The notes under the pieces are model-generated. The model had not been told where the DNA came from. It saw only the letters and a program-made list of their open reading frames with translations, and ran no database searches. The position numbers were made by a program, and so were the translations under genes. This document shows positions 1,626-61,918 of a stretch of 64,000 nucleotides of DNA, piece by piece (position 1 is the first letter of the stretch; each line of letters starts with the position of its first letter). Location: the NCBI GenBank assembly GCA_964016885.1, contig OZ024741.1, positions 34,596,001 to 34,660,000 of the forward strand. The letters run 5' to 3'. This stretch comes from Eledone cirrhosa (lineage: Eukaryota).

Positions 1626-2055
1626 GGAGGTGAGTTTTATTGTAGTACAATAAAGCAATGCAGATATCGGATAAGAAGCACTCTACAGTTTGTGGGACTG
1701 GAGTATGCATAATATAAGATCAAAAGATGGTTAAAGGAGTTCAATATATTTTATTATGCGCATTTCAAAAACAAACATCATCAAACAATAATATTTGTGT
1801 TTTCATCAGATAAAACAGGAGAACATGATATGAAGGCTAAAAAAACACTTGTTGATAGTGCAGTTTTAAATCAACATATCAACATATGTTGATTTAAAAC
1901 TGCACTATCAACAAGTGTTTTTTTAGCCTTCATATCATGTTCTCCTGTTTTATCTGATGAAAACACAAATATTATTGTTTGATGATGTTTGTTTTTTAAA
2001 TGCGCATAATAAAATATATTGAACTCCTTTAACCATCTTTTGATCTTATATTATG
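1626..2055. mobile_element. Palindromic non-coding insert (Penelope pseudo-LTR-like), arms 1708-1879 and 1884-2055
   Basis: 172-bp inverted arms with a 4-nt spacer and one visible mismatch; flanked by (TA)n on both sides; contains an HHR. Confidence 0.85.
1749..1815 (-). ncRNA. Type I hammerhead ribozyme (family A)
   Basis: TTTTAT-CTGATGA-[long AT-rich helix II CAAATATTATT/GATGATGTTTG]-GAAA-TGCGCA-TA-ATAAAA. Helix I is 6 bp; helix III is the palindrome ATGCGCAT. Confidence 0.85.
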
Positions 2056-5000
2056 TATATATATATATATATGTATATATATATATATATATATATATAT
2101 ATATGTATATATATATATATATATATATATATATATATGTATATATATATATATATATATATATATATGTATATATATATATATATGTATATATATATAT
2201 ATATATATATATATATATATATATATATATATATATATATATGTGTATATATATATATATATATATATATATATATATATATATATATATATATATATAT
2301 GTATATATATATATATATATATATATATATATATATATATATATATATATATATGTATATATATATATATATATATATATATATATATATATATATATAT
2401 ATATATATATATGTATATATATATATATATGTATATATATATGTATATATATATATATATATATATATATAATATATATATATATATATATATATATATA
2501 TATATATATATATATGTATATATATATATATATGTATATATATATGTATATATATATATATATATATATATATATATATATATATGTATATATATATATA
2601 TATGTATATATATATGTATATATATATATATATATATATATATATGTATATATATATATATATGTATATATATATATATATGTATATATATATATATATG
2701 TATATATATATATATATGTATATATATATATATATATATATATATATATGTATATATATATATATATGTATATATATATATATATATATATATGTATATA
2801 TATATATATATGTATATATATATATATATATATATATATATGTATATATATATATATATATGTATATGTATATATATATATATATATGTATATATATATA
2901 TATATATATATATATATATATGTATATATATATATATATATATATATGTATATATATATATATATATATATATATGTATATGTATATATATATATGTATA
3001 TGTATATATATATATATATATATATATATGTATATATATATATATATATATATATGTATATGTATATATATATATGTATATGTATATATATATATATATA
3101 TATGTATATATATATATATATGTATATATATATATATATGTATATATATATATGTATATATATATATGTATATATATATATGTATATATATATATGTATA
3201 TATATATATATATATATATATGTATATATATATATATATATATATATGTATATATATATATATATATATATATATGTATATATATATATGTATATATATA
3301 TGTATATATATATATATATATATATATGTATATATATATATATATGTATATATATATATATATGTATATATATATATATATGTATATATATATATATATA
3401 TATGTATATATATATATATGTATATATATATATATATATATGTATATATATATATATGTATATATATATATATATATATATGTATATATATATATATGTA
3501 TATATATATATATATATATATATGTATATATATATATGTATATATATATATATATGTATATATATATATATATATGTATATATATATATATATATATGTA
3601 TATGTATATATATATATATGTATATATATATATATGTATATATATATATATGTATATATATATATGTATATATATATATGTATATATATATATGTATATA
3701 TATATATGTATATATATATATGTATATATATATATGTATATATATATATGTATATATATATATGTATATATATATATGTATATATATATATATATATATA
3801 TATGTATATATATATATGTATATATATATATGTATATATATATATGTATATATATATATATGTATATATATATATATATATGTATATATATATATGTATA
3901 TATATATATATATGTATATATATATATATGTATATATATATATGTATATATATATATATGTATATATATATATGTATATATATATATGTATATATATATA
4001 TGTATATGTATATATGTATATATATATATGTATATGTATATATGTATATATATATATGTATATGTATATATGTATATATATATATGTATATATATATATG
4101 TATATATATATATATGTATATATATATATGTATATATATATATGTATAATATATATGTATATATATATATGTATATATATATATGTATATATATATGTAT
4201 ATATATATATGTATATGTATATGTATATATGTATATGTATATATGTATATGTATATATGTATATGTATATATGTATATGTATATATGTATATGTATATAT
4301 ATATATATATATGTATATATATATATATATATGTATATATATATATGTATATATATATATATATATATATGTACATATATATATATATATATATGTATAT
4401 ATATATATATATGTATATGTATATATGTATATATATATATATATATATATGTATATATATATATGTATATATATATATGTATATATATATATATGTATAT
4501 ATATATATATGTATATATATATATATATGTATATATATATGTATATATATATATATGTATATATATATATGTATATATATATATATGTATATATATATAT
4601 GTATATATATATATATGTATATATATATATATGTATATATATATGTATATATATATATATGTATATATATATATATATATATATATATATATGTATATAT
4701 ATATGTATATATATATATATATATATATATATATGTATATATATATGTATATATATATATATGTATATATATATATATATATATATATATATATATATAT
4801 ATGTATATATATATATATGTATATATATATATATATATATATATGTATATATATATATGTATATATATATATATATGTATATATATATATGTATATATAT
4901 ATATATGTATATATATATATGTATATATATATATATGTATATATATATGTATATATATATATATATATATATATGTATATATATATATGTATATATATAT

Positions 5001-6127
5001 ATGTATATATATATATGTATATATATATATGTATATATATATATGTATATATATATATATATATATATATGTATATATATATATATATATATATGTATAT
5101 ATGTATATATATATGTATATATATATATGTATATATATATATATATATATGTATATATATATATGTATATATATATATGTATATATATATATATGTATAT
5201 ATATATATGTATATATATATATGTATATATATATATGTATATATATATATGTATATGTATATATGTATATATATATATGTATATGTATATATATATATGT
5301 ATATATATATATGTATATATGTATATATATATATGTATATATATATATGTATATATATATATGTATATATATATATGTATATATATATATGTATATATAT
5401 ATATGTATATATATATATATATATATATGTATATATATATATGTATATATATATATGTATATATATATATGTATATATATATATATATATATATATATAT
5501 ATATGTACATATATATATATATATATATATGTATATATATATATATGTATATATATATATGTATATATATATATGTATATATATATATGTATATATATAT
5601 ATATATATATATGTACATATATATATATATATATGTATATATATATATATGTATATATATGTACATATATATATATATATATATATGTATATATATATAT
5701 ATGTATATATATATGTATATGTATATATATATATATATGTATATATATATATATATGTATATATATATATATATATATGTATATATATATATATATATAT
5801 ATATGTATATATATATATGTATATATATGTATATATATATATATATATATGTATATATATATATATATATATATGTATATATATATATGTATATATATAT
5901 ATATGTATATATATATATATGTATATATATATATGTATATATATATATATGTATATATATATATGTATATATATATATGTATATATATATATGTATATAT
6001 ATATATGTATATGTATATATATATATATATATATAACGAAGGAAATGTGGTAAGGAACCAGGTGGACCATAACGCACCAAAGTACTCAATACTTGAGGTA
6101 GTAGAGTGGGTAATAGGAACCAGTAAG

Positions 6128-6221
6128 ACCCCGACAGCTGAGCTCAAGCCGTTTCGACGGCTAATTCTGGACTAAATGAAAATTTATCCTGGTATTTAAA
6201 TAGCCGATCTTCTCAAGAGGT
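6128..6221 (-). ncRNA. Type I hammerhead ribozyme with variant U3-A8 core (family B) at the PLE 3' end
   Basis: ACCTC-TTGAGAA-GA(T)CGGCTA...TAGCCGTC-GAAA-CGGCT-TGAGCTC-AGCTG-TC-GGGGT. All three helices pair; predicted GUC cleavage between 6133 and 6132. Confidence 0.82.
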
Positions 6222-7358
6222 AATTCCATATATGGTCAAAGTGATTGTCAAAAATCAGTAGTAATTCTGTGGTTGCAAATTAGTAGGAGAGATGGTGGCT
6301 AAACCTGCCAGTAGGAGAAAGAGGGGAGGGGTGGAGTAGCCCCAATCAAGCGTTTGTAGTGCCAGCTACAGCTGGGCATGAGGTCAAAGAAGATACAGGG
6401 GAGTGGGAGGGGGAGGAAGTCGGAACGGTAGTAGAACAATGGAGGGTAGAAATATATAGGAAAGAAAAAATACTGAGAGTGAAGAAAAGCAAATAAGTGT
6501 AAAGTAAAACAAATGAGTGTAAAGAAAAAATTAAAGTAAATTAAATTCTACGACCTAGGTCTCTAGCTATTGTTAGTCTAGAATAAATAAAGAAATAAAG
6601 AAAGAAAGAAGTAAAGAAAGAAATAAAGAAATAACGAAATAAGTAAAAGAACTAGGTGGGACGGAATAGGCGAGGACCCTTTTAAGAGGTATAAGTACGT
6701 AAATGATACGGTGACGGGTCAACAAAAGGGGCCAAAATACTAAAGAGACTACCACGAAATAAACAATAAAGGTTTCCATCCCGGGCACAATTCCAGCAAC
6801 CACCCAGTGCAGCAAAGTGAACTAATACGAGATAATAATTCTGAGTCCCGAGAAAAATATATACTAATGCTAACTCTAAAAGATCTAAAACAAGCTACAT
6901 GAAAGTTCGTACGAAGTAAAGGTAGAATACGGAAGAATAAATTCAGAATCCACCCCGCCCAAAAGAAAAGCGAAGAAAGAAATACTGAAACGAAAAAATA
7001 AGGCATAAGTGCCACTAAGAAATATAGAGGGCACAGAGAATAGTGGGAGCGGTCGGAAAAAGGGGACAAGTATCCGGGGTCTAAACCAACTGCTATAAAG
7101 GGCGGAGTCCGCCAAATCTATCCTAGACTAGGGGAGGGGGTGGGGGTACTAAGGCTACAAGGGGCCAAAGGGCAGCCTCGGGTGGGCGAGAAAAGACGCC
7201 GACAAAGGAGAAGAGCTGGGGTAGAAGGACTAAGGAGAGAGGGGGGAAGGAAGGAAATCAAGGAAGCGATAAAAGAATACAAAGAAGATCTTACGTCTCC
7301 CTTGGCAAGCAGGGGTTACCCATTGCAAAATCGGCAAGTGGGGTGTTATAGCCCTAGT

Positions 7359-61238: not shown

Positions 61239-61460
61239 CAATGCTACCTGCTCCCTATCCAATCACCACTACCAATGCTACCTGCTCCCCATCCAATCCC
61301 CACTACCAATGCTACCTGCTCCCCATCCAATCCCCACTACCAATGCTACCTGCTCCCCATCCAATCCTCACTACCAATGCTACCTGCTCCCCCACAAGCC
61401 CCACTACCAATGGTAATGCTTCTCCCCCAATACTCACCTCTACCAACGCTAGCCTGCTCC
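61239..61460. repeat. Minisatellite, unit about 34 bp (CAATGCTACCTGCTCCCCATCCAATCCCCACTAC)
   Basis: About six copies, degenerate at the right end. Confidence 0.9.
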
Positions 61461-61685
61461 CACTGCTATCTCCTCCCCGTTTGAATTCTACTGTTGATCC
61501 TTCGGAACCGGTTGCCGCCAATTCACTACCAAACTGTGTCCTCTATCAATACAAGTCGTTATTTGAAATCCATCAAATGTCACTTATACTGCCGAACATA
61601 TCACACGAAGAAGAGTAAAAAGATAGTCTCTGTAACTCGATGTTCCAGTTGTTCGATCAACGGAACAACTGTGTAGCAGGGAGTT

Positions 61686-61796
61686 ACACACACACACACA
61701 CACACACACACACACACACACACACACACACACACACACACACATATATATATATATATATGTATATATATATATATATATATATATATATATATG
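61686..61796. repeat. (CA)n-(TA)n microsatellite
   Basis: Directly visible. Confidence 0.95.
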
Positions 61797-61882
61797 TAAA
61801 AGGTAAACAGAAATAACAACACAATCGGTACAGTATATGTAAGAGATATATTAGGTTAACGCTTGATATAGCAGGAAGAGGG

Positions 61883-61918
61883 TCTTAACGTTTCGGACGC
61901 TAGTCCTTCATCAGAAGA
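61883..61918 (-). ncRNA. Minimal hammerhead ribozyme (family G) in a PLE-terminus-like fragment ending at the (TA)n near 61796
   Basis: TCTT-CTGATGA-A-GGAC-TAGC-GTCC-GAAA-CG-TT-AAGA. Palindromic helix III ACGT. Confidence 0.82.

Follow-up and report, generated by a model that had tools for sequence, protein, structure and literature searches.

Hammerhead ribozymes (HHRs) and a (TA)n target have been described together in Penelope-like elements (PLEs) of the Hydra clade, including Hydra-1_Obim of Octopus bimaculoides (PMC8557442), and PLE tails, inverted pseudo-long terminal repeats (pLTRs) and junction palindromes have likewise been published (PMC3846280). The Poseidon protein PAc was found to nick and extend both strands of AT-rich DNA from two internal starts that bound the tail, to use uncut RNA and to assist its own hammerhead (PMC11167929), and Naiad PLEs, which carry no HHRs, make inverted, tailed insertions (PMC8557442). 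For retrozymes, a PLE origin has been argued from co-occurrence and pLTR homology, and Li et al. reported activity in one of nine retrozyme dimers (10.64898/2026.07.22.740005). We analyzed a 64,000-nt stretch of the 3.0 Gb genome of Eledone cirrhosa (C2:34596001-34660000; hereafter the window, whose numbering is used throughout), in which an earlier note had recognized a guild of seven unrelated HHR modules living in (TA)n arrays. It is very probable that six of these families are the truncated 3' ends of six different PLEs and that the seventh, family E, is a tandem repeat without open reading frames (ORFs), all of them likely inserted by the reverse transcriptase (RT) and endonuclease (EN) of PLEs. 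This reading is drawn from the upstream ORFs, the (TA)n junctions, the two fixed 3' ends per family and the mixed head-to-head pairs described below.

Hammerheads and their genomic setting

Using a descriptor of the type I HHR (C3-G8 or U3-A8 core with helices I-III), we recovered all 11 core-intact copies that had been recognized in the window, and labelled the families by HHR start (A, 1747; B, 6128; C, 12605; D, 21223; E, five copies; F, 36724; G, 61883). Two more families, one of them seen as a tail only, were identified from their relatives.

1747-1817, minus strand: HHR of family A, by descriptor, with helix I two bases longer per side than in the earlier note
6128-6221, minus strand: HHR of family B, by descriptor
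12605-12649, minus strand: HHR of family C, by descriptor
21223-21342, plus strand: HHR of family D, by descriptor
30378-30420, 30898-30940 and 31418-31460, minus strand: HHRs of family E, copies 1-3, by descriptor
31631-31673 and 32151-32193, plus strand: HHRs of family E, copies 4-5, by descriptor
36724-36877, plus strand: HHR of family F, by descriptor
61883-61918, minus strand: HHR of family G, by descriptor
47547-47714, minus strand: eighth HHR family, a head-to-head mini-insertion truncated within the core of its HHR, with relatives that have a complete core
13901-13943 and again 15080-15122, minus strand: ninth HHR family, a tail-only piece with a match in L248 and longer relatives in L207/L118 that reach an HHR-like motif

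The conserved core, (C/U)UGANG/AA, GAAA and UH, was present in all 11 copies, whose three helices follow the type I order, and self-cutting of these hammerheads is predicted. The five self-complementary helices III named previously were exact. In addition, helix III of family B is self-complementary with one bulge (predicted self-duplex of -26.3 kcal/mol), and that of family C shows no self-complementarity. Three weak additional matches at 25861, 26897 and 26899 were treated as chance. In the 43,118 bases of the window outside microsatellites, the loose, strict and palindromic descriptors gave 14, 12 and 9 matches, versus means of 0.77, 0.08 and 0.03 (maxima 4, 1 and 1) when the same sequence was dinucleotide-shuffled 150 times. 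None of the window hammerheads was detected by Rfam at the gathering threshold, E scoring 18.6 bits (E=0.047, Hammerhead_HH9), and microRNA models matching the TA arrays dominated a whole-window Rfam scan by E-value. As claimed, the seven islands share no obvious similarity outside the core (none by blastn at E<=0.01), and the distance from cut site to microsatellite junction, given before as 60-360 nt, was measured at about 73-364 nt. The count of seven families was too low by the eighth and ninth families listed above; in relatives of the eighth, helix III is 16 nt long and palindromic at its centre, and 15 blast matches to this family were found in random genome sequence.

This random sample consisted of 60 pieces of 10 kb at hand-picked positions spread over 16 contigs (600 kb). 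The strict descriptor gave 54 matches in it versus 0-13 (mean 2.9) in 10 shuffles, corresponding to 35 insertion events in 22 of the 60 pieces. A (TA)6 tract lay within 250 nt downstream in 30 of the 35 events, compared with 10% of random positions. Extrapolation from the sample puts the insertions genome-wide roughly on the order of 10^5. When helix III pairing was not required, 43 of 48 matches in the sample were self-complementary in helix III versus 2 of 12 in 3.6 Mb of shuffles.

As a sample of this genome the window is unremarkable, with about twice the average HHR density and over three times the microsatellite content (32% by our own mask versus 8.8% in random genome pieces). HHR-free LINE ends (600-908 and 17741-18196; LINE body at 9782-11178) and HHR-free pieces that we read as SINE-like from their sequence (14320-14405, 33396-33736 and 34221-34689) were found in the same arrays. 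The density in the random sample and these LINE and SINE ends indicate that the "guild" reflects a genome-wide target preference extending beyond ribozymes. The landing pad proposed in the earlier note thus stands as regards PLE-type HHRs, palindromic helix III and the (TA)n target, and falls as regards specificity for ribozymes or for this window.

Elements behind the ribozymes

The elements to which the hammerheads belong are listed here, with the PLE types suggested by their motifs.

1626-2059, minus strand: family A, Hydra-type PLE, head-to-head mini-insertion with arms 1704-2059, predicted cut after 1755, long end at about 1626 and short end at about 2059
6034-9580, minus strand: family B, almost complete Hydra-type PLE with RT+GIY-YIG frame 7359-8966, a broken 5' part reaching to the N gap, a U3-A8 HHR and the long end at a TA array
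12390-12844, minus strand: family C, Neptune/Nematis-type PLE, head-to-head mini-insertion with HHR 12605-12649; tail-only piece at 17031-17085
20230-21494, plus strand: family D, Hydra-type PLE, 3' part with last ORF codons, 3' untranslated region (UTR), HHR with an 88-nt helix II domain, and long end
30085-32551, both strands: family E, ORF-less 520-nt tandem; minus arm 30085-31606 (three HHRs, ends at +299), plus arm 31603-32551 (two HHRs, ends at +364)
36629-36940, plus strand: family F, Hydra-type PLE, 3' end with an HHR that has a 116-nt helix II domain, and short end (+73)
61796-62075, minus strand: family G, Neptune-like PLE, 3' end with minimal HHR 61883-61918, joining (TA)n/(CA)n

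The islands had been called non-coding, which is wrong at the level of the families. Upstream ORFs homologous to the B frame were found for A, D and F (44, 41 and 43% identical, respectively), with the parent ORF of A at locus L219 and its EN domain in L201-L204, and the ORFs of F about 3 kb upstream of the HHR in L207, L208 and L210. The D copy in the window itself retains the final ORF codons at 20244-20342, followed in its 3' UTR by an internal microsatellite-like stretch at about 20606-20863. Upstream of C, L225 holds a 921-aa ORF that is 18% identical to B, and upstream of G an RT+EN frame is present in L144/L222 (625 aa and 17% identical to B in L222). We also considered whether D and F are non-autonomous elements of fixed length, with microsatellite on both sides; this is ruled out by the ORFs beyond the internal repeats, and their ends look like free islands because microsatellite-like stretches lie within their own 3' UTRs.

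A, B, D and F each have a single ORF combining a PLE RT with a GIY-YIG domain at its C terminus, an HHR near the 3' end and insertion in (TA)n. The CxCX5C linker was found in all four, together with a C-terminal CxxC/CxH and no CCHH, DKT was found in B and D, and the RWK-like motif RWR in B; the aligned A and F frames stop short of both of the latter motifs. Based on these motifs, compared by eye with published references, the four families are assigned to the Hydra clade, with whose members they share the C-terminal GIY-YIG without CCHH, the CxCX5C linker, DKT and an RWK-like motif, as well as the canonical HHR near the 3' end, the (TA)n target, the inverted 5'-truncated copy and the one-sided tail. 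C and G have a CX4CxxC linker, cysteines within the GIY-YIG core and a CCHH-type C-terminal EN (the G frame stops before the last histidine), in common with Neptune and Nematis, which have a CX2-5CxxC linker and a CCHH-type EN. Judged by eye against the rows of Fig. S2 in PMC8557442, the linker of G is long as in Neptune and that of C short as in Nematis; G thus looks Neptune-like and C Nematis-like.

Over 3.6 kb the B copy in the window matches L217 at 98.6% identity, but its 5' part is interrupted by frameshifts and stop codons, so that it is not the active source. Pfam gave no match to the B frame (7359-8966). Its relatives numbered 1,935 at E<=1e-20, and the 120 listed all lacked an informative name. 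Every island belongs to a multicopy family. First-look candidates numbered 880 for B, 71 for C, 793 for D, 338 for E, 685 for F and 2,026 for G, of which 40 were scored per family, and a 32-nt probe for A had 1,643 exact matches. All 40 full-length matches of D among those listed were 100% identical.

Unlike the Hydra-clade elements reported so far, at least four young families occur here in one window. Published Hydra elements are generally below 3 kb, whereas the 3' UTR alone is about 1.3 kb long in A and, including its internal microsatellites, about 3 kb in F. Helix II domains span 36-116 nt, tails are 80-134 nt compared with 30-40 nt in published Hydra elements, and by eye the HHR of Hydra-1_Obim is unlike those of all seven families. 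With the minimal PLE hammerheads (PMC4209133) they share a short palindromic helix III, an extra or mismatched base opening helix II, U3-A8, the many families per genome and opposite-strand pairs 100-700 bp apart; unlike these, their perfect palindromes are longer (6-10 nt), their helix II insertions are much longer, and Rfam misses them. The parts are additions to known kinds, namely several young Hydra-clade families and long-armed HHRs missed by Rfam.

Two further observations concern these families. Copies of A on C1 and the window copy (1828-1935) are repeatedly inverted at nearly one point (probe spacing about 252 nt) with a short palindrome, and the product is a 430-nt near-perfect hairpin with an Rfam match to MIR529 below threshold. 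Between the RT thumb and the EN, the ORFs in L219 (A) and L208 (F) have inserts rich in asparagine, such as have been described in rotifer Penelopes (PMC3846280).

Insertion ends and the ORF-less tandem repeats

In nt past the predicted cut, fixed 3' ends were located at +46 and +130 in A, +20 and +100 in B, +172 and +232 in C, +45 and +157 in D, +299 (or +302) and +364 in E, and +73 and +207 in F. The same held for two ORF-less families outside the window, H (+139 and +165) and I (+72 and +194). The integration signature of PLEs, two fixed 3' ends with an inverted 5'-truncated copy, was thus found in A-F, H and I. With ends called as the maximal match into the repeat, a procedure that favours AT endings, 292 of 311 located termini continue into (TA)n, and the junctions of G are with (CA)n in addition to (TA)n. 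In family B, sequence beyond the long end runs to the ORF ATG at +191. Among 78 head-to-head pairs, 69 combined one short and one long end, six had two short and three two long ends (binomial p=7e-13 versus one half), in a count where one pair is included twice, the queries are skewed to long ends and E is poorly detected by the script. The E termini on C1 (195 listed) gave the same picture, with 15 of 17 divergent pairs less than 10 kb apart, and 14 of 14 less than 5 kb apart, joining short and long. TAT stood at 11 of 13 ends whose natural continuation is known, against a background of 5%.

In family E the two arms meet head-to-head with a 4-nt overlap at 31603-31606, and the units in the window are identical. 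The unit closes on itself 156 nt past the long end, and its longest ATG frame (129 aa) runs through the microsatellite-like part. Genome-wide, 23,477 copies of the E core were found, which occur singly or in arrays comprising tens of units. Dispersed junctions with TA comprised 1,726 short and 2,384 long ends, counted with patterns of unequal stringency (the long-end pattern is gapped over a variable T run) and hence given without a ratio test. Of 37 homology-gathered variants, the 36 distinct ones retained after one indel variant was dropped keep 96.8% of pairs, and one helix I pair shows a two-sided change (G-U 22, U-G 5, A-U 4 and unpaired 5 of 36). Variants reaching at least 5% in an independent run, seen in its contigs, were located at N7, in loop II and at this same helix I pair, and none in the core. 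PLE protein matches occurred in eight of 20 loci around solo E cores, none of them abutting E, and no upstream flank at the E junction was shared across 23 solo loci (22 distinct; a tiny share of the copies). Beyond this sample a parent of E with an ORF may exist, but the closed unit speaks against it.

Judged by its ORF-less tandem units, each with a type I HHR, E is a non-LTR retrozyme. With the metazoan non-LTR retrozymes (PMC7229834; 10.64898/2026.07.22.740005) it shares this organization in dimers to tens of units, the low GC content, a strongly self-paired predicted circle and the presence of PLEs in the same genome. Peculiar to E are the 520-nt unit with an internal microsatellite-like hairpin, the minimal palindromic HHR, the (TA)n target and the two fixed ends in head-to-head arrangement; the words "inverted" and "microsatellite" are absent from the main text of PMC7229834. 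The E scar is the published PLE tail signature on ORF-less repeats and is therefore evidence that retrozymes are moved by PLE enzymes. The family probably relies on an enzyme of the Hydra type. A lead in this direction is the U10.1-U11.1 mismatch at the base of helix II in E and H, since the same mismatch occurs in most Hydra HHRs (Craig File S2; PMC8557442).

Several related repeats were observed in the loci collected. An E array of roughly 70 units (about 37 kb) lies at C4:305.62-305.66 Mb (L211, L240, L014-L020, L212 and L239), shows higher-order variant patterns and ends at the long site. Family H is a 310-nt ORF-less tandem with helix III ACGCGT and head-to-head arms (L209:2278-5233, L236:1347-3040 and L246:27-3739), its copy in L209 lying within a microsatellite in the 3' UTR of family F. 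Family I is a 544-nt ORF-less tandem with helix III ACTAATTAGT, also head-to-head (L260:159-2180 and L198/L199). A large HHR family in L247, L262, L264, L290, L298 and L299 is related to A in helix I and has helix III ATATATAT/ATATGTAT; in its 27 distinct sequences helix II is strongly variable yet paired, which makes it a better covariation set than the window families.

Other features of the window include an exon of glycogen debranching enzyme at 27551-28327 on the minus strand (PF14701, E=1.8e-52), such that the repeat arrays may sit in introns of that gene, and a tRNA-like match of 35.6 bits at 43236-43308 on the plus strand that is probably a SINE head. A short inverted repeat flanking a TA run at 48513-48590, which includes CTGAAGA, was found in no other locus collected. 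Within 12393-17085 the islands 13901-13943/15080-15122 and 14320-14405/15501-15586 recur 1.18 kb apart, and the tail of C appears again at 17031; this repetition would be either a local duplication within the array or an assembly repeat.

Proposed route of insertion, alternatives and meaning

In the insertion route that we propose, the PLE RT-endonuclease would nick TA repeats on both strands, and each nicked strand would prime reverse transcription at one of two internal RNA sites, as suggested by the Poseidon protein in vitro. The start site would usually be UAU, able to pair with the target. The two cDNAs would then run back through the ribozyme, halt at variable points and be joined head-to-head by microhomology. 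Because the two starts are located beyond the cut, the template would have to be uncut or re-ligated across the ribozyme; for E, the multi-unit arms point to a circle or an uncut tandem transcript, which DNA cannot distinguish. The hammerheads are expected to cut weakly and as dimers via palindromic helix III, which would set the ends of the monomer; in B this end would be 190 nt ahead of the ATG. Lunse et al. are said to have shown in 2017 that small PLE hammerheads cleave as dimers. An active dimer fold is predicted for B and F, and an intermolecular helix III for A and D.

The two internal starts bounding the tail, the nicking and extension of both strands and the template left uncut across the HHR are all in common with Poseidon PAc. 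There, however, the start lies in an AC-rich loop reported as non-homologous to the target, whereas 11 of 13 ends here have TAT in common with theirs, and in the portions available to us neither a strand difference in start site nor a one-short-one-long rule is stated (PMC11167929).

That non-homologous start is the first of several points that weigh against our reading. HHR mutants left Poseidon insertion in vitro unchanged (PMC11167929), and the AT bias of maximal-match end calling weakens the TAT result. In family G one end was found, with neither a short end nor a regular inversion resolved, and the clade placement of C and G is by motifs only. Covariation within E is thin; covarying pairs were no more numerous than in shuffles (438/500), and among the 36 variants no compensatory change was seen in helix II or helix III. 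Of 51 G copies only 20 still fit the descriptor, as do 43 of 50 for B. Folding of the monomer is predicted to give an inactive structure for A, D, E and G, and so is that of the dimer for C, E and G. Finally, as regards a partner enzyme, no blastn match of E to another family outside the core was found among the loci collected.

The alternative that survives best holds that the hammerheads are real and selected and take no part in insertion, acting in transcript processing or being passengers, with the scar made by the protein dimer alone. We rate this slightly above even. It is compatible with the reading preferred here, from which it differs solely on the role of the ribozyme. Besides the Poseidon mutants, it is favoured by the Naiads, whose equal insertions without hammerheads mean that the ribozyme is not required for the insertion geometry (PMC8557442, PMC11167929). 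Against it, a self-complementary helix III recurs in 21 of the 32 HHR clusters among all loci collected, with many different palindromes, so RNA-RNA pairing appears to be kept under selection for something.

A stronger role for the ribozyme, which we regard as improbable, would be an obligately two-armed insertion in which a protein dimer primes the short site on one strand and the long site on the other, with two RNAs joined by palindromic helix III. The ribozyme would then be a dimerisation element, and retrozymes minimal parasites that keep the dimer motif and the two starts. If so, the genome, with some twenty HHR families, different palindromes and about 10^5 insertions, would constitute a natural test library.

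It is very unlikely that E is a satellite, that is, a PLE-derived unit amplified at the DNA level by unequal exchange and fold-back repair with a passive hammerhead. The C4 array has tens of units whose growth may be at the DNA level, and the fold is lost in many array units (144 of 178 fit the descriptor). However, thousands of dispersed E junctions fall at two fixed sites with TA and are paired head-to-head, one of each, and the changes among E subfamilies leave the core untouched.

We give even less weight to the proposal of the earlier note that one autonomous PLE (B) served six truncated or non-autonomous ribozyme-bearing partners. B alone shows a long ORF inside the window, target and end geometry are common to all families, and E is non-autonomous; however, A, C, D, F and G each lead upstream to RT/EN ORFs of their own, from at least two clades, which refutes the proposal for five families, and the B copy in the window is broken. 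Six families thus have their own RT+GIY-YIG PLE ORFs and only E is non-autonomous. Chance motifs in AT-rich DNA or microsatellite assembly artefacts, which the AT-rich islands, a 200-N gap in the window and the one shuffle of ten that reached 13 strict matches might suggest, are refuted and have next to no probability in view of the shuffle controls, the hundreds to thousands of copies with fixed ends on many contigs, and the coverage of E with variants by contigs of the independent run.

In our literature search, which covered subscription journals thinly, no report appeared of a two-start scar in retrozymes, of a count of short ends paired with long ones or of TAT priming. As a catalogue, the analysis adds young Hydra-clade families that are very abundant in this genome. 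What moves animal retrozymes is a question posed in the literature, and the scar of family E bears on it more directly than co-occurrence and names cis sites. The one-short-one-long rule and the TAT match are concrete predictions for an in vitro PLE assay.

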